Shown one piece after another: positions 12,944-57,266 of a stretch of DNA of 64,000 nt. The translations under genes were made by a program, and so were the position numbers. Within the stretch, counting starts at the first letter, position 1. Every line of letters starts with the position of its first letter. The stretch is taken from assembly GCA_965262915.1 (NCBI GenBank), contig OZ253564.1, positions 2,592,001-2,656,000 on the forward strand, written 5' to 3'. The notes below the pieces were generated by a model that worked only from the letters and a program-made list of their open reading frames with translations, was not told the origin of the DNA and searched no databases. The stretch comes from Candidatus Spongiisociaceae bacterium. Lineage in GTDB: Bacteria > Actinomycetota > Acidimicrobiia > Spongiisociales > Spongiisociaceae.

Positions 12944-13063
12944 CGTGTTCTGCAGTGTATCAGTCCAGTTGTCAGTCGGTTATAATATACTAGTCATTGG
13001 TTGTTAGCGTAGTACAAACACAATTTGATACCGCCTGGGATGATCCGCGCTCGACAGGCCCGC

Positions 13064-26087: not shown

Positions 26088-26129
26088 GGCCGGCGCATAC
26101 CACACCGCCATTTCACAGACAGACCACTA
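26088..26129. repeat. Right-end fragment of the 167-bp MITE family A
   Basis: GCCGGCGCATACCAC...TCACAGACAGACCACTA matches the right ends of the copies at 41856-42022 and 56995-57161. Confidence 0.75.
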
Positions 26130-28370: not shown

Positions 28371-28579
28371 GGTTCTATCCGTCTGGGGGCACACCGAAGG
28401 TTAGCGATAGTTGAGCAGACGTGAAACGAACTATGAAGAAAATGAATGAATGGCCGACACGGTGTCGGCTCCCGGATGTAGGATTTTGTGACCGGAGGAA
28501 CTCCGAGAATGGCCGGTGACGGCTAGAGACAGCTACAGAGAGGAGCGACAGATGGTTTGTTGCGACACAGGTTCGCGCC

Positions 28580-32717: not shown

Positions 32718-33746
32718 ATGAGTAGTTCCAAGGGGTGTGGGTGGATAATCCACCGTTTTGGGGGTGGGGGTGTCCAGAATCCGGGGTGAAAAAACTTCCC
32801 CGATCCCGGAGGACCTGGTATGAACCCGGACCTGGACACCCTCGCTACCACAGTATATGTGACGGTTGATGATCTGTTGATCCAGCATCCCGAGTGGGTG
32901 CCCCAGCGACCCGCGGTGGGGATCGCTCCCAAGCTGTCCGACGCCGAGTTGGTCACCCTGGCGGTGATCCAGTCGCTGCTCAGATACACTTCCGAGGCCC
33001 GTTTCTTGCGCTACGCGCACGCCCATCTCAAACCATGGTTCCCGTATCTGCCTACCCGATCCGCCTACAACAGGCGGCTACGCCGCCTCGGCCTCACGAT
33101 GCAACACATCATCGCCTGGCTGGCCCGGGACTGCCCGTCGTGGCATGACGACCTGTGGTTGGTGGACTCCACGCCCGTCGAGTGCGGACGCAGCCGCACA
33201 ACCCAACAACGCTCTGACCTGGGGGGATGGGCCGAATACGGCTACTGCGCCTCCCACTCCCGCTACTTCTGGGGGCTGCGCTTCCACCTGGTGGCCACCC
33301 CATCGGGACTGCCGATAGCCTTCGCGTTGGCGCCGGCCAAAGCGGACGAACGCGACATCGCCACAGAAATGATCGCCCACGCCCGCCTAGCCCGAGCGGG
33401 CCAAACTCTCATGGCGGACAAAGGATACCGAAGCGCCAGCTTCGAGGAAGACCTCAACGAGGCCCACATGACCCTCATCCGCCCCGCCACAAAAACAGAA
33501 GCGCCCAGAAGCGGCCAGCGGTTCCTCCGACCCTTCCGCCACATCATCGAATCGATCTTCCAAACCTTCAAGGGCCAACTCGATCTCGAACGTCACGGCG
33601 GACGCACCAAACCGGGTGTTGTGGCACGTGTCCTCCAACCGATACTCGCCCTCACCACCGTCATCTGGCACAACGAAACCACCTAACGACCAGGCCCAGC
33701 ACGCTCCCTCATCGCATATGACCACTAAAACCTTGGAACTAACCAT
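32718..33746 (+). mobile_element. IS982-family-like insertion sequence
   Basis: TIRs ATGAGTAGTTCCAAGG / CCTTGGAACTAACCAT; CTAG on both flanks (32714-32717, 33747-33750). Confidence 0.85.
32820..33728 (+). pseudogene. IS982-family DDE transposase with a premature TAA at 33684-33686
   Basis: LSDAELVTLAV, VDSTPVEC, YGYCASHSRYFWG, ADKGY, IESIFQTFKGQL. The frame continues past the TAA as RPGPARSLIAYDH*, the usual C-terminus. Confidence 0.85.
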
Positions 33747-36563
33747 CTAGAGGACATCGCGGAGGAACTTGCCGGTGTAGGACTGCGGAACCTGCGCCAC
33801 CTGTTCGGGTGTTCCGATCGCGACTATGCGGCCTCCCTCGTCACCGCCTTCGGGTCCCATGTCGATGATCCAGTCGGCCGAGCGCACCACGTCGAGGTTG
33901 TGCTCGATGATGACCACGGTGTTGCCGCCGTCGACCAGGCGATGGAGGACCTCCAAGAGCTTGCGGGTGTCCTCGAAGTGGAGGCCGGTGGTGGGTTCGT
34001 CGAGGATGTACAGCGTGTTGCCCGTGGATCGTTTTCCCAGTTCGGATGAGAGTTTGACCCGCTGCGCCTCGCCGCCGGAGAGGGTGGGGGCCGGCTGGCC
34101 GAGGCGGATGTACCCGAGTCCCACGTCGTAGATGGTCTGGAGGATGCGGGCAATGGGCGGCTGCGCCTCGAAGAAGACCAAGGCCTCCGCAACGGACATG
34201 TCGAGTATGTCGGCGATCGATCGTCCCTTCCATCGCACCTCGAGCGTATCCCGGTTGTAGCGACGACCTTCGCATACTTCGCAGGGGACGTAGACATCGG
34301 GAAGGAAGTGCATCTCGATCTTGATGTTCCCGTCGCCCTTGCAGGCTTCGCAGCGGCCGCCGCGGACATTGAAGGAGAAGCGCCCCGGTAGGTAACCGCG
34401 GGCTCTGGACTCCGGAGTGGAGGCGAACAGCTTCCTGATCCGGTCGAACAGCTTCGTGTATGTGGCGGCATTCGACCGGGGAGTCCGACCGATCGGCGAC
34501 TGGTCGATATTGATCACCTTGTCCAGGTGCTCGGCGCCTTCGATACGGCGGTGATGCCCCGGGACCGCCCGCGAGCGGTACAGCCTGTGGTGGAGGGCCT
34601 TCGACAGGATCTCCTGCACCAGGGACGACTTGCCGCTCCCCGACACCCCGGTGACCGCGATGAACATGCCCAGCGGGAACTCGACATCGATCTGGCAGAG
34701 GTTGTTCGCGGCTGCGCCCACCACGGTCATTATGCGGCCGTCTCCCGGCCGGCGCCGGTCCGGTGTAGGGATCCTGCGGCGGCCGGCCAGGTAGTCGCCG
34801 GTGAAGGAGGTGGGTTCGGCGATGATCTCGGCAACACCTCCTTCCGCCACCACATGACCGCCTTGCTCGCCCGCCCCCGGTCCGAGATCCACGATGTAGT
34901 CCGCGGTACGGATGGTCTCCTCGTCGTGCTCGACCACGATCAGGGTGTTACCCAGATCCCGGAGGCGGAGCAGGGTCTCGAGGAGGCGGCGGTTGTCCCT
35001 CTGGTGCAGGCCGATCGACGGCTCGTCGAGCACGTACAGCACCCCGACCAGGCCCGAGCCGATCTGGGTGGCCAGACGGATTCGCTGGGCCTCTCCCCCC
35101 GACAGGGTGGCCGCTCCCCTGTACAGGGTCAGGTACTCGAGGCCCACATCGAGGAGGAACTGCAGCCGGGCCCGGATCTCCTTGAGCACCGGCGCCGCGA
35201 TCGTGGCATCCCGCCGGCCCATCTCAAGGGTGTCCAGGCTGTCGAGCGTGCCCCGGATGGAACGGCTGCACAACTCGAAGATGTTGAACTCCCCGACGGT
35301 CACCGACAGCGATACCGGATTCAGCCGCGCTCCCCCGCAGGTCGGGCACGGGATCTCCCGCATGTACTCCTCGTAGTAGCGCCGGGCCGATTCCGACTCG
35401 GTCTGGTCGTGGCGACGGCGCAGGACCCGGATCACCCCCTCGTAGGTCGCTTGGTACTGCCGCCTCCTGCCGAAACGGTTGGTGAACGACACCTGGATGG
35501 ACAGGTCCCCGGTCCCGTACAGCACCGCCCGGCGATGGTCCTCGGCCAGAGTGAAGAACGGTGCGTTCACATCGAAGCCGAGCTCGTTCGCCAGCCCTGC
35601 CAACAGGTGGTGGAAGTAACGGTTCCGGTTGCTCGACCAGGGGGCGACCGCGCCGGCGGCTATCGAGAGCTCGTCGTCGGGGATCACCAGCAGCGGATCG
35701 ACCTCGAACGTGGTGCCGATTCCCGAGCACGCCTTGCACGCTCCGTAGGGGCTGTTGAACGAGAAGGAGCGCGGCTCCAGCTCATCGAACGAGAGGCCGC
35801 ATTCGTTGCATGCCAGGTGCTGGCTGAAGGTCAGCTCGGGACCATCGATGATGTCCACCACCGCGATACCGCCGGTGAGGCCCAGTGCGGTCTCGAGCGA
35901 CTCGGTGAGCCGGCGGATGCCACCCCTACCGGCGACCAAGCGATCGACCACCACCTCGATGGTGTGGGTGTAGTAACGGTCGAGACGTATGCGGTCTGCC
36001 AGGTACATGATCTCGCCGTCCACCCTGGCCCGGCTGAAACCCTGGCGCGAGAGGTCCCGGAACAGTTCCTCGTACTCGCCCTTGCGTCCCCGGATCAGGG
36101 GAGCCAGCACCTGGAACCGGGTCCCCTCCTCCAACTCGGCGATCTGGTCGACGATCTGCTGGGGTGTCTGGCGCGCCACCATCCGCCCGCATTCGGGGCA
36201 GTGGGGCCGGCCGATGCGGGCGTAGAGCAGGCGCAGGTAGTCGTGGATCTCGGTGATGGTGCCGACTGTGGAGCGGGGGTTGCGGCTGGCCGTCTTCTGA
36301 TCGATGGAGATGGCGGGCGACAGCCCTTCGATGAAGTCCACATCGGGCTTGTGCATCTGGCCGAGAAACTGGCGGGCGTAGGCCGACAGGCTCTCCACGT
36401 ACCGGCGTTGCCCCTCCGCGTATATGGTGTCGAATGCGAGGCTGGACTTCCCGGAGCCGGACAGTCCGGTGAACACGATCAACCGGTCACGCGGGAGCTC
36501 GATGGAAATGTCCGCCAGGTTGTGCTCGCGCGCTCCGCGAACGGCCAGCTTGTCTCTCGTCAT
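33747..36563 (-). CDS. uvrA: Excinuclease ABC subunit A
   Basis: GAREHNL, two Walker A motifs ([18 protein letters not shown]), LSGGEAQR x2, Zn fingers. Confidence 0.98.
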
Positions 36564-36703
36564 AGTGCCCGGGTGTGTTGCTGTACGGGGAAGCAGGGGT
36601 GGTGGCACCATGGTAGTGGCGGTCGGCAGTTGCCAGTAGCCCGGTCACCCCGAGTCCCGACTTGCGGAAGCCGGATACGGGCTACCTGTACCATCGCCTG
36701 CTC

Positions 36704-39700
36704 ATGAGTCGGTTACCCGAGTACGTGGTCTTCGACCTGGAGACGAACGCCGACCGACCTGATCGGGCCGAGCACGAGATCATCCAGATCGGCGCCGTAG
36801 CCGCAGTCGGGAACGGCGAGGTGGATACGTTCGAGGCTCTGGTCCGGCCCCGGCGACCGCTGCCCGCCCGGATCACCGAGCTGACCGGGCTGGTGTACGG
36901 CGATCTGGCGGGCGCGCCGCCTCTCGGGCGCGTCCTGGGCGAGTTCTTCGAATGGCTCGGCGACCGGCCCCTGATCGCCCACAACGGGTTCGGCTACGAC
37001 TTCGTGGTTCTCGACGCTGCCGCGGCCGCGGAGGGGATCGTCGTGCCGGCCGGGGACCGGCTCGACACCTTGGAGTTGGCTCACCTCGTTCACCCCCGGG
37101 CCGGGTCCGGTATCCGCAGCGTGGACGGTGCCTCTCCTCCACCCGGACGCAGCCTCGACCACCTGGCGGCGGCCTACGATCTGGCCGGCCGGGACCGCCA
37201 CGACGCTCTGGTCGATTCCCGGATGACCCGGGCTGTCATGCTGGGCCTGCTCGAGGAACTGGATCGGGATTCGCCGGTGCGCCGCTTGCAGCGGTGGATC
37301 CTCGGCGTGTCCGCTCATCCGTGGGCGGGATTCGTGCAGCCGCAGTCCCGACCGCCGCCGCTCGCCGACGTGGTCCCCTCGGTTCCCGTTCCCGGACCGA
37401 TCGTCCCGACCGGCCGGTTCGACGCGGCTGCGATCGTGAGGGCATTCCGGTCGGGTGGTCGGTTGATGACCGGTGGCCGGACGCCCCGCGCCCAGCAGGC
37501 CGAGATGGCGATATCGGTGTGCAGAGCCTTCACCACCCGCGGTGGGCGTCGGATGATCGAAGCTCCCACCGGGACCGGCAAGACGCTGGCCTACCTGGTT
37601 CCCGCCATCGAGATGGCTCGGGCTTCGGGCCGCACCGCGGTGGTCACCCCACACTCGCGGGTACTGCAGGACCAGATCCTGACCACTCTGGAGCAACTCG
37701 AAACCGAGATCGGGCCCTTCACGAAGGTGGTGCTCAAGGGCAGGCAGAACTACATCAGCCTCAAGTCTCTCGATGCGGAACTCACCGGGATGGAGGAGGA
37801 ATCGGATCGCAGCCCGGTCCGCCATCCCACCGCCATGGCTCTGGCCATCCTGTGCGGATGGGTGGCCGAGACGCCCAGCGGCGACTGGGCGGACCTGCGA
37901 ACGAGGGCGCTGGAGGATCACCTGACTCCTCTGAGGTTCCTGCGGTGGAGGTTGCGAGTCGATACCCGGCCCGGGCCGGTGCGGGACCGCCTCGATGCGC
38001 TCGACTTCTACCGCCGCGCCTCGGGAACTCTGAGGACCGCCCACGTGGCCGTGCTGAACCATGCCCTCCTCGCCACGGGTCCGGAACTGGGGGAGGGATC
38101 CTTCAACCTGATCGTGGACGAGGCCCACGGGTTGGAGGACTCGGTCACCTCTGCGGCGACCCTCCAGGTGGAGGGAGAGCACCTAGAGAGGATATGCGAC
38201 GCTCTATGGGACCCGGAGACACGACGGGGTTTGGCGACGAGGCTGGCGGTTGCCATCGGGGTGGGTCTCCGGGACCGCAGGATCGATCGGATCCGCCGCG
38301 CCGGCGTCGAGGCCCGAGCGGCAATCAGGCGTTTCTCGGCGCCCCTGACGGAGTACGTGCGCGACCGGACCGGCGTGAGGCGGGAGGAAGCGGCGCGCTA
38401 CGGCTCCTCCTACCGGATCCGCCGGGGGGTCGACACCTACCACCCCTCGTACCGGACCGTTCTCGAAGCAGGCCGAGCCATGAGGCGCGCCCTCCGCGAG
38501 GTGACCGAGGCCCTTGACGCCATCAGCGTGCCGGAGCAACTCCACGGCCGGTACCGCCGCGACGCTCTGGAGGATGAATTGGCCCGGTTCGGCCGGGAGA
38601 TCTCCGACGCGGCCCTGCTGGTCCACTCCGTGCTCTCAGCCGCGGCCGACATGCGTCTCTTCGACGACGACCTGAGCGATCACCACTTGATCGACTGGAT
38701 CAACATCGCCGAGGTCTCCTTCGAAACGTTCGGGAGGGGACGCGACGGATTCGAGGCCGTTGGCGGGACCGCCGCGGAGGCCGGCCGCAGCGGGCAGGGA
38801 GAGTGGCGCTGGGCGCTACGGCGGGCTCCGCTGTCGGTGGCGGGCCTGCTGTCCGAACTGTGGGAAAGGAGCCACTCGGTGCTGCTCACCTCGGCCACGC
38901 TTCGGGCCGGTGACGACTTCGGTTACCTGGTCGGCCGCCTGGGACTCGGCTCGGTCGAGTCGAAGGTGATCGACACGCCGTTCGGGAATCTGCCCGAGAA
39001 CCATCTCCTCCTGCTGACCGACTACCTGCCCGCGCCACGGGGGCAGCTCATGGATCGGTTCACCGAGACCGAGGCCACCGAGATACCCAGGCTGTGCGTG
39101 GCGAGCGACGGCGGGGCACTTGTGCTCATGACGGCCCGGGCCCGGCTGGACTACGTGCGGGATCACGCCCGTGCCCATCTGGGGCCTCTCGAACTGGAGC
39201 TCATGGCCCAGGGAGACGGACCGTCGCCGGCTCTCGTGGAGCGGATGCGAAACGATCGGGACTCCTGCCTGCTCGGACTGCGGTCGTTCTGGGAGGGGAT
39301 CGATATCCCCGGCGACGCCCTGAGGTTGCTGGTGGTGGAGAAGGTTCCGTTCGATTCGATCGGCGATCCGGTGGTGGGTGCTCGCAGCGATCTGATCGAG
39401 ATGAGGGGACGGGACCCGTTTGCCGACTACATGGTCCCGCGGGCTGCCATCGCCTTCGCCCAAGGGGTGGGACGCCTGATCCGCACTGCCGACGACAAAG
39501 GCGTCACCGTCGTGCTGGACAGCCGCCTGCGCCGCCCCATCCCCTACCGCGACGTGCTGCTGCGCGGCCTGACCGGACCCCCATCCAAGCGGGAGATCGA
39601 CACTCCCGAGGCTGCCTACGACGCCATCACGGATCACCTGGGTCTCGACCTCGACCGGGTCCGGTGGGAGAGGATCCGCCGGATACCCGGGATCGAGACG

Positions 39701-41842
39701 TTGTCGCAGGCGGCCCTCGAGGTCGGTGACGATGGTTCCCCCGACCGCCCGGCCATCGCCCGGCGCTTGGAGAGGGCCCGGGAGTGGCTCGGTTTCGAGG
39801 AGTGGAGGCCGGGCCAGCACGAGGTGATGACCCGGTTCATGCGGGGCGAGGACGTGGTGGCGGTGCTGCCCACCGGGTTCGGCAAGTCGGTCACGTACCA
39901 GGTTCCGGCGCTGGTATCCCCCGGCGTGACGATGGTGGTGTCGCCGCTCATCGCCCTCATGCGGGATCAGGTCGACAACCTGCGGGCCCGAGGGGTCACC
40001 GAAGCGGCGGCCATCTACTCCGGAGTAGGCCAGGCGGAGCAGCAGGCGATCCTTGCCGGCGCGGCCGCCGGCCACATCAAGCTGTTGTACGTCAGCCCGG
40101 AGCGACTGTGGTCACCGGTGTTCCGCACCTGGTTGAAGGAGGTCGACGTGGCGCGGGTGGCGGTGGACGAGGCCCACTGCATCTCCCTGTGGGGCCACTC
40201 GTTCCGGCCGGAGTACGCCATGATCCCCCGTGCGGTTGCCGAGGTGACCGGCGCGAGGCTTCCCACCCTGGCGGTGACGGCCACCGCCACGAGCGAGGTT
40301 CTCGAGGACATCGCCGCCCTGCTCGACCTGCGGCCGTCGGGCCGACCGCTGGTCGGATCGGTCAACCGGCCCGAGATCCGCTACTACCTGGAGCGCTGCC
40401 GGAACCGCAAGGACCGTGATCTGCGCGTCATCCAGGTGGTGGAGGCCTTCCGCCGGCGGAGCGCCATCGTCTACGTGCCGACCCGCAGGGACACGACCCG
40501 CCTCTCCGGCCTGTTGCGCACCTTCGGCAACCGGGTGCGGCCCTACAACGGCGCTATGTGCTACACCGAGCGCCAGCACACCGAGGATGCGTTCCGCCAC
40601 GGCGAGATCGATGTGGTGGTGGCCACCAAGGCCTTCGGTCTGGGTATCGACAAACCGGACATCGCCCTGATCGTGCATCTGGAGATGCCCGCCTCCATCG
40701 AGGAGTACGTCCAGGAGACGGGACGGGTGGCCCGCGGTGCCCGCGACGGTACCGGACCGGACATCGGAACCGCCGTGCTGCTGGTGACTCCCAACGACTG
40801 CGGCATCCACGAGTTCTTCGCGCGCTCGGCGGTTCCCGAACTCGAGGACATCGAGCGAGAGTTGGCTCCGCTGGCGGTGGGGATGAACTACATCGACCCT
40901 GCCCGGCTCAGCCGCCGTCCCGGTACGGAGGACGCGGAGCCCGACCAGCTCCGGGTCCTGGCGCTGCACTATCTGGACCGGGTGGGGGTCCTGCGCCGGC
41001 ACCGAGACTTCGTGCTGCGGGGCCGCGTCGCGCCGGTGGAGGACACCGGGCGGCGCCTCGCGGATCTGCGGACCCGCGATCCCGAGTCGGCTCGGAAAGC
41101 CGACGATGTCCTACGCATCGTGGAAAGAGAGGGAGGCGAGTACCGCGGTCTCGACTGGAGTTCACGTCTCGGTATGTCGCCCGGCGAGATCGAGGCTGTC
41201 CTGTTCGACATGCAGAAACGTGACATCTGCTGGTTCAGTAGCTGGAAGTACGGGTGGGTCTTCGAGAGGATCGAGGGGGTCCGGCCCGACCGGCGCCATC
41301 TCGACCGCTTGATCCGGCGTCGCCGACGGTCGGTCGAGGACCGCGCCCGCCGGGCGCGGCGCCTGGCTCATGGGCGTCCCGACTGCCGTCGCCGGGAGAT
41401 GCTGCGGTACCTGGGCGAGTCCGATCCCTTCGAACGCGGCTACTCCTGCGGGGGTTGTGACGCCTGCACCCCGGAACTTCCCCGTCCCTGGGCGGGGACC
41501 GGGATCGGTGTCGAGCAGATGCGGGAGGCCGTCCACGAAGGAGCCGACGCCATCATCCTGGTGTTGATCGACGATGTCGAAGGTGGCCGGTGGTCGAGGC
41601 GCAACCTGGTGCGGACGCTGCGTGGGGAGGGCGGCGGTCTCCATCCCCTGCCCGAGCGCCTCCGGTTGCACAGCTGTTTCGACCGGCTGGGGCTGCTCGA
41701 CCCCGAAGAGGTGGAAGGGATGATCGACGGGATGATCAGGGACGGCTACCTCGAGGAGGTCCGGCCCGGGGGCCGGACCTACAAGACGCTCCGGCTCACC
41801 GATGACGGTCGTAGCCTCCTCCGGGGCCGCTACTCCCGGTAG
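36704..41842 (+). CDS. Multidomain DEDDh 3'-5' exonuclease / DinG-type helicase / RecQ-type helicase fusion
   Basis: Exonuclease: FDLET, AHNGFGYDF, HDALVD. DinG: EAPTGTGKT, KGRQNY, DEAH, TSATL, SFWEGIDIPG, QGVGRLIR. RecQ: PTGFGKS, VSPLIALMRDQV, DEAHCISLWGHSFRPEY, TAT, ATKAFGLGIDK, QETGR, Zn CRR..CGGCDAC, RQC-like end. Confidence 0.9.
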   Translation: MSRLPEYVVFDLETNADRPDRAEHEIIQIGAVAAVGNGEVDTFEALVRPRRPLPARITELTGLVYGDLAGAPPLGRVLGEFFEWLGDRPLIAHNGFGYDFVVLDAAAAAEGIVVPAGDRLDTLELAHLVHPRAGSGIRSVDGASPPPGRSLDHLAAAYDLAGRDRHDALVDSRMTRAVMLGLLEELDRDSPVRRLQRWILGVSAHPWAGFVQPQSRPPPLADVVPSVPVPGPIVPTGRFDAAAIVRAFRSGGRLMTGGRTPRAQQAEMAISVCRAFTTRGGRRMIEAPTGTGKTLAYLVPAIEMARASGRTAVVTPHSRVLQDQILTTLEQLETEIGPFTKVVLKGRQNYISLKSLDAELTGMEEESDRSPVRHPTAMALAILCGWVAETPSGDWADLRTRALEDHLTPLRFLRWRLRVDTRPGPVRDRLDALDFYRRASGTLRTAHVAVLNHALLATGPELGEGSFNLIVDEAHGLEDSVTSAATLQVEGEHLERICDALWDPETRRGLATRLAVAIGVGLRDRRIDRIRRAGVEARAAIRRFSAPLTEYVRDRTGVRREEAARYGSSYRIRRGVDTYHPSYRTVLEAGRAMRRALREVTEALDAISVPEQLHGRYRRDALEDELARFGREISDAALLVHSVLSAAADMRLFDDDLSDHHLIDWINIAEVSFETFGRGRDGFEAVGGTAAEAGRSGQGEWRWALRRAPLSVAGLLSELWERSHSVLLTSATLRAGDDFGYLVGRLGLGSVESKVIDTPFGNLPENHLLLLTDYLPAPRGQLMDRFTETEATEIPRLCVASDGGALVLMTARARLDYVRDHARAHLGPLELELMAQGDGPSPALVERMRNDRDSCLLGLRSFWEGIDIPGDALRLLVVEKVPFDSIGDPVVGARSDLIEMRGRDPFADYMVPRAAIAFAQGVGRLIRTADDKGVTVVLDSRLRRPIPYRDVLLRGLTGPPSKREIDTPEAAYDAITDHLGLDLDRVRWERIRRIPGIETLSQAALEVGDDGSPDRPAIARRLERAREWLGFEEWRPGQHEVMTRFMRGEDVVAVLPTGFGKSVTYQVPALVSPGVTMVVSPLIALMRDQVDNLRARGVTEAAAIYSGVGQAEQQAILAGAAAGHIKLLYVSPERLWSPVFRTWLKEVDVARVAVDEAHCISLWGHSFRPEYAMIPRAVAEVTGARLPTLAVTATATSEVLEDIAALLDLRPSGRPLVGSVNRPEIRYYLERCRNRKDRDLRVIQVVEAFRRRSAIVYVPTRRDTTRLSGLLRTFGNRVRPYNGAMCYTERQHTEDAFRHGEIDVVVATKAFGLGIDKPDIALIVHLEMPASIEEYVQETGRVARGARDGTGPDIGTAVLLVTPNDCGIHEFFARSAVPELEDIERELAPLAVGMNYIDPARLSRRPGTEDAEPDQLRVLALHYLDRVGVLRRHRDFVLRGRVAPVEDTGRRLADLRTRDPESARKADDVLRIVEREGGEYRGLDWSSRLGMSPGEIEAVLFDMQKRDICWFSSWKYGWVFERIEGVRPDRRHLDRLIRRRRRSVEDRARRARRLAHGRPDCRRREMLRYLGESDPFERGYSCGGCDACTPELPRPWAGTGIGVEQMREAVHEGADAIILVLIDDVEGGRWSRRNLVRTLRGEGGGLHPLPERLRLHSCFDRLGLLDPEEVEGMIDGMIRDGYLEEVRPGGRTYKTLRLTDDGRSLLRGRYSR

Positions 41843-41855
41843 GAGCCGCCGCCTG

Positions 41856-42022
41856 TAGTGGTCTGTCTGCAAAACAACTTGCCGTGCTCTGGCAGCCATC
41901 GACGCCCCTCGCTGTGTTCCGCCTCCTCGATGTACCGCTGCGGGTACGCCTTCGTCGGCGGGCCTTGGGAGGAACGCCGCTGCCGGCGCATACCACCCCG
42001 CCGTCTCACGGACAGACCAGTA
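41856..42022. mobile_element. 167-bp MITE, family A, copy 1
   Basis: Ends TAGTGGTCTGTC...GACAGACCAGTA; internal GTACC-N-GGTAC palindrome; closely similar to 56995-57161. Confidence 0.85.
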
Positions 42023-42036
42023 GTATTCGCAGGTCG

Positions 42037-43845
42037 ATGGCGTTCCTGACACCCGAGAACATCCCCAGCCGTTCCGGCGTGCCGGACCGGCTCCGACAGG
42101 TGGCACGGGCCTTGCGGGACTTCATGCCCTACGAGACGACGGTCTGGCTGGCGGAGAAGGAGGGGGGCGCCCCCTACCTGGAGGTGCTCGACCCCGCGGC
42201 GGGGATTGTCGTGATCGAGGCCCCGCCCATAAGGGTGGGTGGACGCCGGCGCCGCCGCCCGTGGCGCGCCTTCAGCGAGCAGGACATGGTCCGTATCCGG
42301 GATGACATGGCCGAGCGCGCCGAGGATCTGCGGAAGCGCATCGACCGGGCGCTGGTGAGGTCGCTACCCGTGAGGTGTGTCCTGGCTGCTCCGGACCATG
42401 ACGAGGTGCCTGTGAGCGCCCTCGATTCGGTGCAGGGCGATCTGCCGCTACTCACCCGGTCCGACATGACCGGGTCCCGTCTCCGGCCTGCCATCGGCCG
42501 CATCCTCGGCAGCCTGACGATGACCCCGCTGACCGAGCAGGAGGAGAACCGGGCCCGGGCGGTTATCAACCCCGAGATCGTTCTCGGCGCGACCGAGGGC
42601 TACGAGACCCTTCCACTGTTCCAGGATCCCGACATCGCGCCCGGGGACATCATCCGGGTGATGGACCGCGAACAGGAACGGGTGGCGGAGCATCTCGGGT
42701 GGGGGTACAGGATGTTGCGCGGCGTGGCAGGCAGCGGCAAGACGCTGGTGCTCACGCACCGGGTCCGCCATCTCCACCGGCTCTTCCCGAACTGGCGGAT
42801 CCTGTTGTTGTGTTACAACCGGTTGCTGGCGAACGCGCTGCAGATGATGGTGGACGAGAGCGACCGCGTGGATGTCACCAACATCGACCGCCTGGCCTAC
42901 CGGCTGGCCGGGCAGGAGAGCGGCCGTGGCCGGCCCGATTTCGAAGAGTTGAGAAAGCGGGCGGCGGTCAAGGCAGGCCGGCTGCCGGACTCCCGGCGCT
43001 ACGACGTGGTGCTGGTCGACGAGGCTCAGGATTTCGGCCGCCAAGGTCTCGAGCTCGCCTACGCGATGTTGAAGCCGTCGCGCCGGGATCTCGGTGCGGC
43101 CGGGCGTAACCTGCGGTCGTACCGGGCCGGACACTTCGTGATGGCCCTGGACAGCGCCCAGAACGTCTACAGGCGGAGCATGACGTGGAACCCCCCGGGA
43201 CTCACGGCTCGGGGACGCACGACGGTCTTCCGGCGCAACTACCGCAACACCCGGGAGATCCTGGAGCTCGCCTGGACCTTTCTCGAAGGATCGCCCGACC
43301 GCTCGCCGCCGGTCTCCGATGGGGGTGACTCCAAGGACCGTATCGAGCCGGAGGCGGCCCCCAGAAGCGGTCCGGTACCCCGACTGCTCGACTGCCGGGA
43401 CCTGCGGGGCGAGGCCGAAGCCATCGCCGCCGAGATCGGGCGCCTCACCACCGACGGAGTGGATGTCGGCGACATCGCCGTCATGTACGGCCACCGCGAG
43501 CTCGAGACGGAGCTGCAGAAGGCCTTCCGTCAGCGCCGTCTCCCCTACTTCCACATCCAGTACCAGGACCGTCGCGGCCGGAGGCCCAACCGGGACATAG
43601 CCATGGGTGTCCGGGACAAGGTGCGGGTCTCGACGCTCCAAGGTCTCAAGGGTCTCGAGTTCAGCCGGGTGTTCATCGGTGGGGTCAACCAGGCGTACGT
43701 CCACGACGTCGCCGAGGAGGACCAGCCGGTCGCCGTCAAGCAGCTTCTCTACGTGGCCATGACCAGGGCCATGGACAGACTCGTCATCACGATCTCGGGT
43801 GATGGGGAGTCGGGCCGGGCGCTCCGGAACGCCCAGTCGGGGTAG
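42037..43845 (+). CDS. SF1 UvrD/Rep-like helicase with a degenerate N-terminal NERD-like domain
   Basis: IRVMDREQ, GVAGSGKT, LVDEAQDF, DSAQNVY, NYRNT, KGLEF, LYVAMTRA. The ORF-track extension back to 41884 lies within the MITE. Confidence 0.88.
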   Translation: MAFLTPENIPSRSGVPDRLRQVARALRDFMPYETTVWLAEKEGGAPYLEVLDPAAGIVVIEAPPIRVGGRRRRRPWRAFSEQDMVRIRDDMAERAEDLRKRIDRALVRSLPVRCVLAAPDHDEVPVSALDSVQGDLPLLTRSDMTGSRLRPAIGRILGSLTMTPLTEQEENRARAVINPEIVLGATEGYETLPLFQDPDIAPGDIIRVMDREQERVAEHLGWGYRMLRGVAGSGKTLVLTHRVRHLHRLFPNWRILLLCYNRLLANALQMMVDESDRVDVTNIDRLAYRLAGQESGRGRPDFEELRKRAAVKAGRLPDSRRYDVVLVDEAQDFGRQGLELAYAMLKPSRRDLGAAGRNLRSYRAGHFVMALDSAQNVYRRSMTWNPPGLTARGRTTVFRRNYRNTREILELAWTFLEGSPDRSPPVSDGGDSKDRIEPEAAPRSGPVPRLLDCRDLRGEAEAIAAEIGRLTTDGVDVGDIAVMYGHRELETELQKAFRQRRLPYFHIQYQDRRGRRPNRDIAMGVRDKVRVSTLQGLKGLEFSRVFIGGVNQAYVHDVAEEDQPVAVKQLLYVAMTRAMDRLVITISGDGESGRALRNAQSG

Positions 43846-43941
43846 TGGTTGCTGGCTCGACTGCCGGGTTGGTGACATCGGCCTTCCCGGCTTGCAATTC
43901 TGTCAATAGTGGCTTATGTGAGATTGTGGTATACTGCGTGT

Positions 43942-44295
43942 ATGGATAACTCGTCAAGTCTCGCTGCAACCCGCGCTCCGCCGGAGCGACCCAGCGAGCG
44001 GCCTCCGACTGATGATCGGGCCCCGGTAGATGCCGCGGAGGTCGCTGGAGGTGAGGACCGGGAGAGACCATTCCTCGTTATCGACATGTCCAAGATGGAT
44101 CCTGATATCAGGGCGTCGATCGTGGACGACTGCACGCCCCCGGAGGAGACACCCCAAGAGCGGGCGGAGCGCCTCGATCGGTGCAAGGCCGCCACCGCCG
44201 AGTACGACGCCGAGTTCGGTCCCCTGAAGCCCGAGGAGAAGGCTTGGGCGGACTCCGTCTTGGACGGGAGTGGCGACTGGATGGACGAGCCGTGA
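43942..44295 (+). CDS. Putative antitoxin
   Basis: TATACT -10 box 6 nt before the ATG; acidic C-terminus AEYDAEFGPLKPEEKAWADSVL; stop overlaps the PIN gene start (GTGA). Confidence 0.6.
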   Translation: MDNSSSLAATRAPPERPSERPPTDDRAPVDAAEVAGGEDRERPFLVIDMSKMDPDIRASIVDDCTPPEETPQERAERLDRCKAATAEYDAEFGPLKPEEKAWADSVLDGSGDWMDEP

Positions 44296-44672
44296 CATCG
44301 GGGATCACTTACGACACGGGCGCGCTGATCGCGGCCGAGCGAAAAGAGAAACGCGTCTGGCGGTTTCACAGGCGCCTGGTGGATCGGGGCATCGAACCGA
44401 CGGTACCCGCCGGTGTGCTCGCCCAGGCATGGCGGGGTGGATCCCGACAGTACTGGTTGACCAGGTTCCTTTCCGATTGCCGGATCGAAGCGCTGGACGA
44501 GTCCCTGGCTCGTGAGATAGGCGTCATCTGCCACCAGCACGGGGTGACCGACGTCGTGGACACATCCGTGGTGGCCGGCGCATCCCGCCGAGGGGATCAG
44601 GTCGTCACGCGTGACCGCCCGGATGTGGTCTCTCTCGCCAGGTCGATGGGAGTCTCGGTAAGTTACGGGTGA
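44292..44672 (+). CDS. PIN-domain (VapC-like) toxin
   Basis: ITYDTGALIAAER, VPAGVLAQAWRG, DVVDTSVV, VVTRDRPD. Confidence 0.85.
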   Translation: MTSGITYDTGALIAAERKEKRVWRFHRRLVDRGIEPTVPAGVLAQAWRGGSRQYWLTRFLSDCRIEALDESLAREIGVICHQHGVTDVVDTSVVAGASRRGDQVVTRDRPDVVSLARSMGVSVSYG

Positions 44673-44932
44673 ACAATGGGCTGACCGGCGCGGCAAAACG
44701 GCCCACGCGGCTGCATTCCGAAGCGAGTGTTGATCAGAATCACCGTAGGCAGGCCTTCCATATCCCAGCCTGCCACCGCCACGATATCTTGTCTTCCATG
44801 GGTACCTTCTGTATCCACCCTGATGTTTGCGCGAAGCACTCGCTCGATGTCCTCTTCGGTTCTGTGTCTCAGGGTGGCGGGATGAGTATCCAGATATTGC
44901 CCTTGGAACCGGATAGGCAGGTAAAGCCCCGT

Positions 44933-45232
44933 TCAGGCACTTGCAACAGGCAACAGCGCTTCGATCCCGGACCGAACCTCCGGAGGCAGGCGAGACAGAA
45001 GAGACTCCTTATCGGGCCCTACTGCCATGGTGAGTATGTCAGCCGCCTCCTCCATTCCGACCTCGAGCAGATGGCTAACCTGCCGGTCGGTCTCCCACCG
45101 GGCGAAAATACCGAACGCCCATTCCCTTACCTGTTCCTCCAACTCAGGCCCGGCGGGAGTTCCCTTCCACCCCAGCCGCTGGTGAGGATCATCCAAGATC
45201 GCCACCATCTCATCAATACTCATATCTCTCAT
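44933..45232 (-). CDS. Hypothetical protein (lower GC)
   Basis: Protein-like ORF MRDMSIDEMVAILDDPHQRLGW...; no family recognised. Confidence 0.4.
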   Translation of the reverse strand: MRDMSIDEMVAILDDPHQRLGWKGTPAGPELEEQVREWAFGIFARWETDRQVSHLLEVGMEEAADILTMAVGPDKESLLSRLPPEVRSGIEALLPVASA

Positions 45233-45423
45233 ACTCACGAGTCCACTTTCGTAGCCGCTCGTCCGGAGCGGAGGGTCGAAGGGCCGCGCCTGTCGTACAG
45301 CCCTTCCCGTGCCGGCACGGTTTTCTTGTCTCGACCGGATAGCCGAGTGACCGGTCGCGCGCCGGTGCGCCTCGGATCCGCCCCCGATCGGGATGGATCC
45401 CGCCGTGGATGCGGCGCAGGCTG

Positions 45424-45927
45424 ATGTCACCACGGCGGTGGTTGGTCGGGGTCGCCCTGGTCGTGGCCGGCTGTGCAACGTCGCTGCTCCCGAGTGACAC
45501 TTCCTCGGCCGACCCGACTACTCCCGGGCCGCTTCCGGCGACCGGCGCCGGGATGTCCGGAACGGGCCCGGCCTGGCCCGACTTCCGGTCGGCGGTAGAC
45601 GCTGTCGAGACCGAACTTGCTCGGCTCGGATACGAGAACCTCGGAGGCGATCACCCGGGTCCGACTTCCGTCGCCTTCCTGGTGGTCGGCTCGGACGGCG
45701 CGCCCGAGGTGGAGGTCGCGCTGGGTTGGTCCCAAGCTGCTCCCATGGGAGCCTTCAGCACCATCGTCAACACCGTCTCCGGGATGGACGGGATTCAGCG
45801 CGGGCCGGGCCGAGGCGGAGTGTGGTTCCTGTGCGGTCCGCTCTATGTCGAGATGCTCGCCGGGGACCTGCCGGACGCCGCGAGTCTCGCCGACCGGCTG
45901 ATAGACGAGATCTGCCGGCATGCCTGA
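45424..45927 (+). CDS. Hypothetical lipoprotein
   Basis: Signal peptide with lipobox VAGC. Confidence 0.7.
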   Translation: MSPRRWLVGVALVVAGCATSLLPSDTSSADPTTPGPLPATGAGMSGTGPAWPDFRSAVDAVETELARLGYENLGGDHPGPTSVAFLVVGSDGAPEVEVALGWSQAAPMGAFSTIVNTVSGMDGIQRGPGRGGVWFLCGPLYVEMLAGDLPDAASLADRLIDEICRHA

Positions 45928-46153
45928 CCGCCACCGGTCGTCATCGGACGCGGCGCCGGAACGGATGGAGACGCCCCGGCGGGAGACCGACGCGGCGTCG
46001 GCCATGGTCGTGAAGGCTGTCCGGGTAGGGAGGAGAGTCCGGGGAAATCCACCAGCGGCCTGTCGCTTGGCAACAGGCCGCCAGACAATCCGGCGAGGGA
46101 CTCGTGGCAATCGCCGTTGTCGAGCACCCTCCTGGCTGTCAGCTGGGCTGGAA

Positions 46154-46921
46154 TCAGCTGGGCTCGAAGATGGTGAAGGTTCCCTTCTGATCGTCGTTCA
46201 CCACCGCGAAGCGGCCGACCATGATGTCGGTCACCGGAACGCAGACATCCCCGCCCAGACTGGTCACCTTGGCGGCCGTCGCATCGGCGTCCTCCACCTG
46301 GATGTAGACCATCCAGTGGGGCGGTATCTCGCCCCAGTTCTCGTCCATCTCCAGCACCCCGCATACCAGGAAATCGCCGACGGAGGCTAGGTGGTAGTTG
46401 CCGCCCTGAGGCATCGGCATGCTGGTCCACTCCCAACCGAACAGGCTGGTGTAGAAGCTCTTGGTGGACTCCAGGTCACGGCTGTAGAGCTCGTTCCAGG
46501 CCAGGGCGCCGGGGCTGCGGATGATCTCCGCCCCACCGAATTCGAGGGCCTGCCAGAGGAACACCGAAGCGCCGCCCGGGTCCTGCATCAACGCGACCCG
46601 CCCGTTTCCCACATCGGCGGGTCCCATCATGAACGTCGCACCCAGACTCCTCGCCCGCTCCGCGGTCGCGTCCAGGTCGTCGGTGGCGACGTAGGAGAAC
46701 CAGTGTGGCGGGACCCCTTCAGGCAGCATCCCCGGCATTGCCGGTCCGAGAGCCCCGACGCTTTTTCCGTCCAGGTTGAACATGGTGTACGACATTCCCG
46801 AATCGCCCATGGGTACATCCGTCCAGTCCCAACCGAAGAGGTTGCCGTAGAAGGCCTTACCCCGATCCTGGTCAGGCAGGTAGATGTCCATCCAACAGAA
46901 AGTGCCCTGTGGGTGCTTCAC
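46154..46921 (-). CDS. VOC/glyoxalase family protein (CFP32/Rv0577-like, two domains)
   Basis: GTFCWMD, FYGNLFGW, PPHWFSY, DPGGA, WNEL, HWMVY. Confidence 0.92.
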   Translation of the reverse strand: MKHPQGTFCWMDIYLPDQDRGKAFYGNLFGWDWTDVPMGDSGMSYTMFNLDGKSVGALGPAMPGMLPEGVPPHWFSYVATDDLDATAERARSLGATFMMGPADVGNGRVALMQDPGGASVFLWQALEFGGAEIIRSPGALAWNELYSRDLESTKSFYTSLFGWEWTSMPMPQGGNYHLASVGDFLVCGVLEMDENWGEIPPHWMVYIQVEDADATAAKVTSLGGDVCVPVTDIMVGRFAVVNDDQKGTFTIFEPS

Positions 46922-48841: not shown

Positions 48842-49160
48842 CCCTCGACCGTCATCGGGTTGATGGCCCGACCCACGTCGTGGGCGGCCCAGAGGCCGAG
48901 AAGTGTCACCTCTCCCGTGTCCGGATCGACCTCGACCTCGGCAACGTGCGCGCCGAAGCCGTAGGTAGCCGAGATGTTGCCGATGTACTCCTTGTTCCGG
49001 CGTTCGGTTGGCGGGTCGTAGAAGGCCGTGGTCATGATCACCGAGCCCTCTTCTTTGAGAAGGAGCCGGCGGATGGCGCGGGATAGTCCACCCTCCGCTC
49101 CGGATCGGATGCGGAACGGATGTTCCCGTTCTCGATCACCGGGTCGTCCGTCGCGGCGGG
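48842..49160 (-). pseudogene. Fragment of a xanthine dehydrogenase-family molybdopterin-binding subunit
   Basis: TYGFGAHVAEVEVDPDTGEVTLLGLWAAHDVGRAINPMTVEG; truncated at both ends and frameshifted near 49085. Confidence 0.8.
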
Positions 49161-49201
49161 GGATGCGGATTCTCTTCGAGAGCCGGCGACCGTACATGTC
49201 G

Positions 49202-51214
49202 TCAACGGGTGGCCTCGGCCACTTCTCGCATCTCCCTCCTCAATTCGGCTACCTCATCCCGGAGCCGGGCGGCGTACTCGAAACGGAGTTCCCGGGCGGC
49301 CTCTCGCATCTCGTCCTCGAGGCTCTGTATGAGGCGTCCCAGGTCCTCACCCGCCAGCTCGATGGGCGCCCGGACCTCCATGTCGGGACGGCGCCTCCTC
49401 CGGCCGGACGTCTTCCCCGAAGAGACCAGCTCGAGGATGTCGGCCACCTTCTTGCGGATCGTCTGGGGATCGATCCCGTGCGCTGCGTTGTGCTGAATCT
49501 GCCGGCTCCGGCGCCGGTTGGTCTCCCCGATGGCCGCTCCCATCGAGGCGGTCACCTCATCGGCGTACATGATCACCCGACCGGACACGTTGCGGGCGGC
49601 CCGGCCGATTATCTGGATGAGGCTGGTCTCGGACCGGAGGAATCCTTCCTTGTCGGCGTCGAGGATGGCCACCAGGGACACTTCCGGGAGGTCGAGGCCT
49701 TCCCGCAGCAGGTTGATGCCCACCAGCACGTCGTACTCCCCCAGGCGCAGGTCCCGCAGCAGCTCTATCCGCTCCAGGGTGTCGATCTCCGAGTGCAGGT
49801 ACCGGGCCCGCACCCCCATCTCCAGCAGGTAGTCAGTCAGGTCCTCCGACATCTTCTTGGTAAGGGTCGTGACCAGCACCCGCTCGTCGACAATGGCTTG
49901 GGCACGGATCTCCTCCAGGAGATCGTCGATCTGACCCTTGGCGGGACGCACCACCACCTCGGGATCCACCAGCCCGGTCGGCCGGACGATCTGCTCGACG
50001 ATGTTGGCGGATTGGCGGCGCTCGAACGGGCTGGGGGTGGCCGAGGAGAAGACGACCTGGCCGGTCTTCTCCAACCACTCGTCGAAGCGCAGGGGACGGT
50101 TGTCGACCGCCGACGGCAGGCGAAAACCGTGCTCGACCAGTACGTCCTTGCGGCTCCGGTCGGCCTCGTACTGCCCGTGGAGTTGCGGTATGGCCACATG
50201 GCTCTCGTCGATGATGGTGATGAAGTCGTCGGGGAAGTAGTCGAGCAGTGTGTAGGGGGCTTCTCCGGGGGCCCGACCGTCTATATGCCGGCTGTAGTTC
50301 TCGATCCCGGAACAGAAACCGATCTCTCGGATCATCTCCATATCGTAGGTGGTGCGCATCCGGAGGCGCTGGGCCTCGAGCAGTTTCCCCTGCCGCTCGA
50401 GCTCGGACAGCCGCTCTGCCAGCTCCAGCTCGATCTGCACCAAGGCCCGTTCCATCCGTTCCCGGGTGACGGCGTAATGGGAGGCGGGATAGACCCAGAG
50501 CTCCTTCAATTCCTCGATGATCTCGCCGGTTACCGGGTTCATGCGCACTATGCGCTCCACCTCGTCGCCGAAGTATTCCACCCGGGCGATGGTCTCCTCG
50601 TAGGCGGGGAAGACCTCCAGGGTGTCACCCCGAACCCGGAACCGACCCCGTACGAGGTTCACCTCGTTGCGTTCGTACTGGATGTTGACCAGCCGCCGGA
50701 TCGCTTCGTGGAGCGGGTACTCCACCCCTCTGACCAGCCGGAGGACCTGCCCGGCGTACTCCTCCGGACTGCCCAGCCCGTAGATGCAGGACACGCTGGC
50801 GACGATCACCACGTCGTCCCGGAACAGCAGCGACGACGTGGCGGCGTGCCGCAACCGATCGATCTCGTCGTTGATGGTGGCGTCCTTCTCGATATACGTG
50901 TCGGTGTGGGGGATGTACGCCTCGGGCTGGTAGTAGTCGTAGTAAGACACGAAGTACTCGACCCGGTTCTCGGGGAAGAACTGGCGGAACTCCGAGGCCA
51001 GCTGGGCGGCCAGGGCCTTGTTGGGGGCTATGACGAGGGCCGGACGCTGGGTGCCCTCGATCGCCCAGGCAATGGTGGCCGACTTTCCCGATCCGGTGAT
51101 GCCGAGCAGGGTCTGGAAGTGATCCCCTCGCTCCACCCCTTCCACCAGGGATTCGATTGCGGCAGGCTGGTCTCCCGCCGGCCGGAACTCGGAGTGCACA
51201 CGAAACTCGGCCAT
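49202..51214 (-). CDS. uvrB: Excinuclease ABC subunit B
   Basis: [50 protein letters not shown]-terminal UVR domain. Confidence 0.98.
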
Positions 51215-51230
51215 CCGGCCGAGTCTAGGA

Positions 51231-51320
51231 GGTTGCCGGTTGCCGGTTGCCAGGTGCCAGGTGCCAGGTGCCAGGTGCCAGGTGCCAGGTGCCAGGTAGG
51301 TGCCGGCTACCGGTTACCGG
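51231..51320 (+). repeat. Heptamer tandem array (GGTTGCC/AGGTGCC) between coaE and uvrB
   Basis: ggttgcc x3, aggtgcc x6, then degenerate units that overlap the coaE stop. Confidence 0.9.
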
Positions 51321-51891
51321 CCATCAGTCGCTTGACCAGCCGGTCGACTTCCGAGACGAGCGACTCTCCGGGTCCTCCGTTGTCCAGTACCAGATCGGCG
51401 GCCGAGCGCCAGTCGTCACGGCTCGGTTGGGCGGCCATCCGGGCATCGATGTCGTCCTCCGTCAGGCCGCGCCGGCGGAGCCGCTCCTTCCTCGTTTCGA
51501 TGGGAGCATCCACCGTGACCCGGACCCAGCTCGCGTCGGCCAGATCCGCGAGGACCGGGATCTCCACGGCTGCCGGACGGTTTCCCACCTCGCTTCCCCA
51601 CTGCTCGATCGCCTCACGGATCGCCGGGTGGGTGAGGGCTTCGAGTTCTTCCAGTTGCGACTCGTCGTCGAACACGATCCGTCCCAGCCTGCCACGATCG
51701 ATCCGCCTCTCGACCACCGCCTCCGGCCAGCGCAACGCAACCCGGGCGGCCACCGGATGGCCGGGTGCGAGTACCCGATGGCCTAACCGGTCGGCATCCA
51801 GTACGGAGAACCCCCGCTCGGCCAGCATCCGACCGACCTCCGATTTGCCCGAGCCGATACCGCCACCGATGACGATACGAACCGGTCTTAT
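51307..51891 (-). CDS. coaE: Dephospho-CoA kinase (start uncertain)
   Basis: [38 protein letters not shown]; rpsA-coaE-uvrB synteny. Confidence 0.9.
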
Positions 51892-51949
51892 GGTTGGTCC
51901 CGAAGGTCGAGGGTGCGGTCGGGTCCGATCCGCACCACGGAGCCAGCGC

Positions 51950-56994: not shown

Positions 56995-57161
56995 TGGTAG
57001 TCTGTCTGCAAAATAACCTGGCGTGTTCTGCTTGCCATCGACGCTCCTCGCGGTGTTCCGCCTCCTCGACGTACCGCTGCGGGTACGCCTTCGTCGGCGG
57101 GCCTTGCGAGCAACGCCGCTGCCGGCGCATACCACGCGGCCGTCTCACAGACAGACCACTA
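56995..57161. mobile_element. 167-bp MITE, family A, copy 2
   Basis: Closely similar to 41856-42022; ends TGGTAGTCTGTCTG...CAGACAGACCACTA. Confidence 0.85.
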
Positions 57162-57266
57162 GCATCGCGGGCAGTTGTCCTTTGCTTACCCGCCGGTCGC
57201 GGCGAACGACGTGTCCGGCCTACGCGCAGGAACCTGTACCCCCACGATCCGGCGGTTATCAAGTTC

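Follow-up and report, generated by a model that had tools for sequence, protein, structure and literature searches.

A DEDDh exonuclease, DinG and RecQ fusion of Acidimicrobiia and its UvrD-like partner gene: architecture, distribution and possible function

DinG helicases with an N-terminal DEDDh exonuclease (ExoDinG) are known from the Bacillales, those of S. aureus (8zef, 9ii8) and B. subtilis being examples. According to the main text of a 2025 review of DinG-like proteins (PMC11981726), the Bacillales proteins retain a pseudo-iron-sulphur (pseudo-Fe-S) region with zero to one conserved cysteine. Both 3'-5' exonuclease and 5'-3' helicase activity are reported for the Fe-S-less S. aureus DinG, which is needed for resistance to mitomycin C and formaldehyde (PMC12345164), and B. 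subtilis DinG has been connected with replication stress (PMC12525004). The union of such a protein with a RecQ helicase is also on record, since Omelchenko et al. (2005) noted a three-domain "DnaQ-DinG-RecQ" fusion on pTT27 of Thermus thermophilus HB27 (PMC1274311). The subject of this work is a gene of this kind, hereafter the fusion, located at positions 36704-41842 of a 64,000-nucleotide stretch (the window) of contig OZ253564.1 of a Candidatus Spongiisociaceae bacterium (Acidimicrobiia), together with the UvrD-like gene that follows it. Prior description, which the initial annotation of this DNA had named as a possible objection, thus holds in part: the architecture was published as early as 2005, without being characterised as a system, and no functional study of it was found in the literature. 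RecQ is absent from the main text of the 2025 review (PMC11981726), whose supplementary tables might list such architectures. What is added here is the size and spread of the family, a strict pairing with a UvrD-like gene in Acidimicrobiia, an apparent replacement of DinG, and the cassette's mobility as a whole.

Three intact and conserved catalytic modules are joined in the single polypeptide of the fusion (Table 1). An alternative TTG start at 36662 would give a protein of 1726 amino acids (aa); the ATG at 36704, from which residues are numbered, is the likelier start because relatives align from residues 1-7 of this form. All six Pfam domains exceed their curated cut-offs, RecQ_Zn_bind (PF16124) with 28.5 bits against 25. 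Between 36600 and 43900 there are no inserted or deleted letters with respect to contigs of four runs from four studies; moreover, one X5 contig spans 36769-40185 with six substitutions and no gaps, thereby joining the exonuclease, DinG and the start of RecQ, and the module junctions are bridged by single metagenome contigs. The open reading frame (ORF) of about 1710 aa with three enzymes in the initial annotation is therefore upheld, and the two separate genes which that annotation had considered do not appear.

Table 1. Coordinates of the fusion gene, its modules and the partner gene in the window
Feature	Position	Strand	Basis
Fusion gene	36704..41842	+	Single uninterrupted ORF, 1712 aa from ATG 36704
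DEDDh 3'-5' exonuclease domain, residues 8-178	36725..37237	+	Pfam RNase_T, 72.5 bits
DinG/XPD-type superfamily 2 (SF2) helicase without Fe-S cysteines, residues 261-945	37484..39538	+	ResIII 261-336, Helicase_C_2 796-945 (121 bits)
RecQ helicase core, residues 1026-1377	39779..40834	+	DEAD 1035-1201 (122 bits), Helicase_C 1245-1344 (74 bits), TIGR00614
Family-specific insertion of ~150 aa, residues 1378-1528	40835..41287	+	Length in 110 sequences, AlphaFold2 (AF2) model
RecQ Zn-binding domain (1529-1589) and putative C-terminal RQC-like winged helix	41288..41839	+	RecQ_Zn_bind, 28.5-31 bits
Spacer with ~163-bp MITE-like (miniature inverted-repeat transposable element) dispersed repeat	41843..42039	.	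blastn copies, depth spike
Partner gene, 601 aa	42040..43845	+	Degenerate PD-(D/E)xK/NERD-like N-domain (~1-156) and UvrD/PcrA-type superfamily 1 (SF1) core

Conservation of the catalytic residues was followed in the query plus 109 relatives of 1640-1780 aa, taken from the 119 that a word-indexed search listed besides the window's own protein (the best 120 of 335 relatives). In the exonuclease, D11 and E13 are kept in 109 of these 110 sequences, N94 in 107, and D99, H166 and D171 in all. The DinG residues K293, DEAH 472-475, Q920, R924 and R927 are kept throughout, as are Q1038, K1061, D1155, E1156, R1341 and R1344 of RecQ (H1158 in 109) and C1561, C1582, C1585 and C1588 of the Zn domain. Two Walker A motifs (APTGTGKT at 287 and PTGFGKS at 1056) and two DEAH boxes (472-475 and 1155-1158) are found, and the RecQ part also contains motif 0 and an aromatic-rich loop, WGHSFRPEY. 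Intact exonuclease motifs and two complete SF2 sets, as first claimed, are thus confirmed, with residues kept in 107-110 of 110 relatives.

The first ~960 aa find their nearest NCBIfam models in the exonuclease-bearing DinG proteins of Bacilli (PRK08074, 369 bits; TIGR01407, 327.5), although the equivalog cut-offs are missed (547.7 for TIGR01407, 789 for PRK08074, and 169 bits against 794 for PRK07246). The closest structures in the PDB are E. coli DinG (6fwr, 3.6e-31) and S. aureus DinG (8zef/9ii8, 1.6e-30). The canonical DinG/XPD feature of four 4Fe-4S-ligating cysteines between motifs Ia and II is absent from all 110 sequences, which carry 0-3 cysteines in residues 300-470, with a single conserved cysteine column (86%) and S352 in the place of the first ligand; the strings KGRQNYIS and LDFYRRA, quoted in the initial annotation for the loss of these ligands, were located at 345 and 433, and the loss itself is real. 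The fusion shares the exonuclease and DinG helicase with Bacillales ExoDinG, which differs in having neither a RecQ half nor an obligatory SF1 partner. Pfam gives only weak P-loop matches for the linker at 180-260.

The second half is a RecQ helicase by TIGR00614 (289.7 bits, cut-off 219.8), while it stays below the cut-off of the recQ equivalog TIGR01389 (356 against 640); its closest PDB matches are RecQ 4tmu (4.8e-76) and also 1oyw. With bacterial RecQ (E. coli 1oyw, C. sakazakii 4tmu) it shares motif 0, Walker A, DEAH, the four-cysteine Zn domain and, putatively, an RQC-like winged helix; it differs by an insertion of ~150 aa, by the lack of an HRDC match and by its place behind ExoDinG. 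An HRDC domain is present in E. coli RecQ, and no Pfam HRDC match was obtained on residues 1366-1712 of the fusion at E values up to 1. The C-terminus scores 15.7 bits with Pfam RQC, below the cut-off of 23.

The long insertion ahead of the Zn site, also reported at the outset, is a constant of the family: the RecQ core model ends at 1377, the Zn domain begins at 1529, and the stretch between them measures 149-172 aa (median 152) in all 110 sequences. An AF2 model of residues 1335-1712, built from 19 sequences, has a confidence (pLDDT) of 78.8, above 90 across most of the insertion, which is modelled as helices capped by long beta-hairpins. Searched with Foldseek, the whole C-terminal model matches the WRN helicase (4e-5), the RQC domains of WRN (TM score 0.74 on target) and BLM (0.65), and PadR/MarR winged helices (0.57-0.65). 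The insertion probably forms one or more extra winged-helix-like DNA-binding modules, this being an inference from the model, as the Foldseek output omits which part aligned. WRN, a eukaryotic protein, likewise couples a RecQ helicase to a 3'-5' exonuclease (of the DnaQ fold) and is among the best matches in sequence and fold; in WRN, however, the two are not separated by a DinG motor, an SF1 partner is lacking, and nothing indicates that both fusions share a common origin.

The gene directly downstream, hereafter the partner, is the only neighbour that is always kept. Synteny was assessed by tblastn of the window genes against 17 relative loci, nine of the window type and eight at ~50% identity, and in all 17 loci of the family the partner follows on the same strand, with identities of 54-72% or 43-45%. 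It also lies directly downstream in genome G340, which belongs to a different family of the class and shows identities of 40% for the fusion and 37% for the partner, so that both genes occur together in 18 of 18 loci, down to 40% identity. Furthermore, in quick IQ-TREE trees (19 rows each, SH-aLRT support) the fusion and the partner sort into the same four groups. Judging from gene order, the conserved unit in this lineage is a two-gene, three-motor cassette; with a third motor always encoded by the next gene, the fusion does not amount to a one-chain machine.

Relatives of the partner align from residue ~52 of a longer GTG frame. Its Pfam matches are UvrD_C, AAA_19 and UvrD-helicase, its best PDB match by sequence is M. 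tuberculosis UvrD1 (9dci, 3.9e-22), and its AF2 model (pLDDT 75) retrieves UvrD 2is4 with Foldseek (1e-17). SF1 motifs I-VI (GSGKT, DEAQD, Q374, YRNT, KGLEF, TR) are invariant or at least 90% kept in 57 sequences. For the N-terminal 260 aa, Pfam gives nothing beyond weak P-loop matches, and none at all for the first ~156 residues; the model shows an alpha-beta-beta-beta-alpha-beta pattern, in which D51 is kept in at least 90% of the 57 sequences and the ExK-like position is E/D/Q/T-A-P, P62 being invariant. The catalytic D...(D/E)xK triad of NERD/PD-(D/E)xK nucleases is therefore incomplete, an invariant proline occupying the position of the lysine, and the N-domain would be a catalytically degenerate nuclease-like domain. 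In PADLOC the partner best matches a 'NERD+UvrD' candidate (PDLC01087, 149 bits), the GajB models reaching at most 50 bits. A single-chain form including the partner was also sought and set aside: seven weak matches at 26-30% identity, none of them Exo-DinG-RecQ, were obtained, which is weak evidence.

The spacer between both genes, 197 nt in the window, ranges from a 17-nt overlap to 49 nt in the relatives, and its greater length here is explained by the MITE-like repeat. This repeat has terminal inverted repeats and 107 blastn hits of median length 163 in the 5.06-Mb genome, copies other than the query being at most ~94% identical, and it coincides with a ~70-fold depth spike at 41724-42211 in the contigs of the four runs; it is not part of the machine. 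A further copy lies at 56997-57165 of the window and a fragment at 26089-26129. A scan of 36400-44200 found no terminator-like site, neither between fusion and partner nor elsewhere, and, for sigma-70, one promoter-like site on the minus strand inside the gene, which is uninformative for a high-GC actinobacterium.

The distribution of the fusion was surveyed with a 271-aa query spanning the DinG-RecQ junction. Of 29 species genomes from a single family of the Acidimicrobiia, 20 carry it, including every sampled species of three genera (g1, 7/7; g4, 3/3; g3, 2/2), 7 of 12 genomes of g7, and none of g2 (0/1), g5 (0/1) or g6 (0/2). Outside the family, only G340 and G221 gave matches across the junction among 401 sampled genomes of the class, and a sample of 401 genomes of the phylum gave none outside the class, only RecQ N-termini being matched; the tallies include genomes G028, G039 and G724, none of them with the fusion. 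Close relatives carry the source names 'Acidimicrobiia bacterium', 'Candidatus Poriferisocius' and 'Ca. Poriferisodalis'.

A wider view was obtained by comparing residues 1-1200 exhaustively with 1.84 billion 50%-identity representatives, the best 150 matches being examined. By blastp, 84 of these 150 join DinG and RecQ in one chain, 62 of the 84 also with the exonuclease, and at least 73 are full-length fusion clusters (at least 1550 aa). The 73 full-length representatives fall into ~25 groups at 40% identity or more, that of the window holding 10. Another 46 of the best 150 are exonuclease-plus-DinG proteins without RecQ, of which those listed at 895-1010 aa are 33-40% identical; among these representatives, such proteins appear to be the nearest non-fused kin. 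Large as it is, the family is annotated 'RecQ family helicase' in every source name seen.

Homology can be followed by tblastn across the DinG-RecQ junction in plasmid relatives of Thermaceae and Deinococcus, single pieces over query residues 703-1381 being 32-34% identical on Thermus, Meiothermus and Deinococcus megaplasmids. The T. thermophilus JL-18 fusion, of 1649 aa, has RNase_T at 9-169, ResIII/DEAD_2, Helicase_C_2 at 741-892, DEAD at 966-1129, Helicase_C at 1168-1280 and RecQ_Zn_bind at 1475-1518, that is, the same module order and a long gap before the Zn domain, and a Deinococcus actinosclerus plasmid relative shows the three-domain architecture in order by Pfam. The JL-18 copy is 97.6% identical to WP_011174436.1 of HB27, and relatives that cover at least 80% of the JL-18 gene are present in 21 plasmid records, all from Thermaceae, among them HB27 pTT27. 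The HB27 protein bears the annotation 'RecQ family ATP-dependent DNA helicase', in common with the relatives of the window protein. On HB27 pTT27 (L121, NC_005838.1 107273-136219), 'recQ' is annotated at the position of the 1649-aa fusion, so the gene listed under this name is apparently the three-enzyme fusion.

The Thermus fusions differ from that of the window in their low identity over 703-1381, in being plasmid-borne and in lacking a UvrD-like gene downstream. In JL-18 and HB27 the fusion stands first in a conserved gene string, being followed by two hypothetical genes and a 'BglG'-annotated gene, and then by reverse gyrase; the three genes after the fusion gave no significant Pfam or PADLOC match. 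Other partners were seen in the remaining subgroups, with one locus examined for each: a UvrD-type helicase upstream and an 886-aa unknown on the D. actinosclerus plasmid, and HrpB upstream with unknowns of 432 and 611 aa downstream in a Deinococcales metagenome-assembled genome (MAG).

As to function, we tentatively regard the cassette, with somewhat less than even confidence, as an elaborated ExoDinG for the repair of crosslinks or of replication-stress damage, serving non-essential genome maintenance at blocked forks, crosslinks or R-loops. Gene 1 would provide a DEDDh 3'-5' exonuclease and an Fe-S-less 5'-3' DinG motor, extended by a complete 3'-5' RecQ with its Zn domain and extra winged-helix-like modules, and would act on forks, flaps, gaps or 5'-tailed duplexes. 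The DinG motor would track one strand 5'-3' and the RecQ motor the complementary strand 3'-5', so that, with opposite polarities on opposite strands, both would drive the same way into the duplex. The exonuclease would shorten the displaced strand, be it nascent DNA or R-loop RNA, from its 3' end, and the UvrD-like partner would add a further 3'-5' translocase, for example to strip proteins. That two motors of opposite polarity share one chain is a fair inference by analogy, because S. aureus DinG shows 5'-3' helicase activity. Of the bipolar helicase-nuclease first proposed for this gene, a reasonable reading, the three intact modules stand, an Fe-S-less ExoDinG is known, and the polarities are presumed from family membership; the likeness to a RecBCD-type motor is not supported. 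If the scheme is true, two opposite SF2 helicases and a proofreading-type exonuclease in one chain, combined with an SF1 motor, would constitute a mechanistically new helicase-nuclease design.

Part of the proposal is that the cassette would replace ordinary DinG in this Acidimicrobiia lineage. In a scan of the family with Helicase_C_2, a standalone DinG of 669-698 aa was found in none of the 20 fusion genomes, 19 of which have no other match to this domain; in G001 a 927-aa frame adds one weak match (34.8 bits). Among the nine genomes without the fusion, four (G008, G011, G012 and G016) carry a DinG of 669-698 aa, four have none and G020 gives a weak match of 26.6 bits. Moreover, the fusion is divergent to uvrA in the window and in three loci of the same genus, and the family neighbours of the cassette are mostly metabolic genes (74 ORFs, 16 loci), which also speaks against a defence role.

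Several observations weigh against genome maintenance. The complementarity with DinG rests on few independent evolutionary events, and no LexA-box-like site with up to three mismatches to the consensus occurs at 35959-37698. The gene is accessory, being missing from 9 of 29 family genomes, and divergent paralogous cassettes coexist in the window's genome (G000), G001 and G022. The second cassette of the window's genome is a 7.4-kb insert that holds only the cassette; this insert (in G000:C1:2015786-2034792) is bracketed by direct repeats of 507 bp, 99% identical (L018:4633-5139 and 12537-13043), which duplicate the 3' end of rseP inside a cdsA-dxr-rseP-ispG-proS cluster, and in both trees it stands alone on a long branch. 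In Thermus, all that is left in HB8 is a remnant of the first 249 aa, and a 2026 transposon-sequencing study (PMC13140390) reports the HB27 'recQ' as a highly insertion-permissive, dispensable 'shell' gene. The HB27 string lies between type I-C and III-B CRISPR-Cas modules. Partner genes differ between fusion subgroups, and in G221 the fusion, a distant variant, is the fourth gene of a tight operon, behind a ResIII helicase, a type III methylase (906 bits) and a 184-aa ORF and ahead of a DrmD/BrxHI-like SNF2 protein (233 bits).

Many of these observations are what would be expected of anti-phage or anti-plasmid defence, in which the motors would unwind and degrade the DNA ends or replication intermediates of invaders while lineage-specific partners sense or regulate; this is a serious possibility, over which genome maintenance is favoured only slightly. 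It would account for the swapping of partners between subgroups, the two contexts of G221 and HB27, the second, repeat-flanked cassette and a presence that varies by strain, as between HB27 and HB8, with broken copies in Thermus SG0.5JP17-16 (three pieces), G001 and G004. Patchy, cross-phylum spread (Acidimicrobiia, another Actinomycetota MAG, Deinococcales MAGs, Thermaceae megaplasmids), the ~25 subgroups below 40% identity among the 73 full-length representatives, the faster divergence of the fusion than of UvrA (61-71% against 79-89% identity in full-length matches) and the partner's top defence-library match, to the 'NERD+UvrD' candidate, point the same way. On the other hand, every sampled species of three genera has retained the fusion, a stability unusual for a defence system, the characterised ExoDinG proteins act in repair, and the defence-rich contexts examined are two only, with one locus each. 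The matches in PADLOC-DB v2 are generic for the domains (DpdF models for RecQ, type IV DinG models for DinG, and PsyrT), and no dpd or CRISPR type IV genes are among the annotated neighbours of the window cassette. Furthermore, none of 11 ORFs without assigned function (six lineage-specific partner genes and five window ORFs downstream) matched PADLOC, and all 37 phage-record matches are to the RecQ part only. A broader version, in which Exo-DinG-RecQ fusions would form the core of an undescribed, widespread and modular surveillance or defence class, is slightly less probable; here a bipolar exonuclease with two SF2 motors and interchangeable partners (a UvrD-like motor in this lineage, a methylase with SNF2 in G221, proteins without assigned function on Thermus megaplasmids) would find foreign DNA that has free ends or is replicating, and destroy it. 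The homolog in the genetically tractable T. thermophilus HB27, where it is dispensable, makes the question of repair or immunity directly testable.

The end-resection role suggested in the initial annotation, as a one-chain RecBCD-like motor, is not supported: a RecBCD/AdnAB-like bipolar machine preparing double-strand breaks for RecA is improbable. Two motors of presumably opposite polarity, a nuclease in the same unit and the uvrA neighbour would suit it, and the concept of coupled motors plus nuclease on DNA ends is shared with RecBCD, AddAB and AdnAB; these, however, use SF1 motors and RecB-family PD-(D/E)xK nucleases, the latter absent from the cassette. Intact AdnA and AdnB (frames of 1022 and 1095 aa, each with UvrD-helicase and PDDEXK_1) are present in the same genome, so a RecBCD substitute is unlikely, and standalone RecQ (721-aa frame) and UvrD (771-aa frame) are there as well. 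Neither the fusion nor the partner has PDDEXK_1, the four PF12705 matches of the genome lying elsewhere, the invariant proline of the partner N-domain speaks against a second nuclease and one motor sits in a separate gene; the sole intact nuclease of the cassette appears to be the 3'-5' exonuclease, which would be expected to consume the 3' tail that RecA needs. The dispensability reported for the Thermus gene (PMC13140390) and the patchy distribution also argue against this role.

Least probable of all is RNA or R-loop quality control, with the exonuclease acting on RNA 3' ends and the helicases remodelling RNA-DNA hybrids. A DEAD-box RNA helicase gene is divergent to the cassette in two loci (L012 and L015), and in G035 the gene right behind a DinG gene encodes a DEAD-box-type helicase; nevertheless, such a neighbour occurs in only 2 of 17 cassette loci. 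The RecQ, Zn and RQC-like modules are DNA-handling domains, and the partners are of the UvrD type, whose helicases are DNA translocases. Removal of unprocessed rRNAs by Listeria DinG, with a genetic interaction with a DEAD-box helicase, has been reported (PMC12774634), and this clearance favours the RNA role. The G035 pair was also considered as a split DinG and RecQ form and rejected, the downstream 408-aa ORF being DEAD-box-like (DEAD 154 bits, no Zn domain).

Regarding decaying copies, the G004 partner extends over two frames (L024 11999-13736), and in the second cassette of G001 (G001:C133:25708-30682) the fusion is split into frames of 1225 and 516 aa. The window's genome also contains a 1787-aa ORF on the minus strand (G000:C1 at ~4.73 Mb, L036:5650-11013) with DEAD at 313-484, Helicase_C at 533-638 and UvrD at 1126-1605, which adjoins a DUF4143/AAA_14 ATPase gene; related frames of ~1790-1840 aa occur in five other genomes (G005, G006, G019, G021 and G022). 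Like the cassette, it combines RecQ-type and UvrD-type motors, but without the DinG module, and the likeness is one of analogy, homology not being shown. Kinship of the partner with its UvrD module was rejected, the match (27% identity, E 2e-5) resembling those to UvrD and AdnA.

Around the cassette, a DDE transposase ORF (DDE_Tnp_1, 32820-33686) separates a phosphatase gene from uvrA; it is likely a genome-specific insertion sequence, because these two genes are adjacent in three loci of the same genus. Downstream, the ~2.2 kb at 43846-46140 hold ORFs at 43914-44696 (minus), 44669-45424 (plus) and 45409-45927 (plus), with no Pfam or PADLOC match and no tblastn match in syntenic loci of the same genus, where the partner is followed immediately by a homolog of 45920-46390. 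At 49028-52225, a 1065-aa ORF without Pfam match is overlapped by an opposite-strand ORF of 670 aa, either being only a putative gene. Finally, a 701-aa ORF at 26289-28394 on the minus strand combines a glycine-betaine-binding OpuAC domain with SBP_bac_3 and the ion-channel domains Ion_trans_2 and Lig_chan; it resembles a ligand-gated channel equipped with a sensor of the betaine type, and it adjoins a BCCT transporter gene and a second OpuAC gene.

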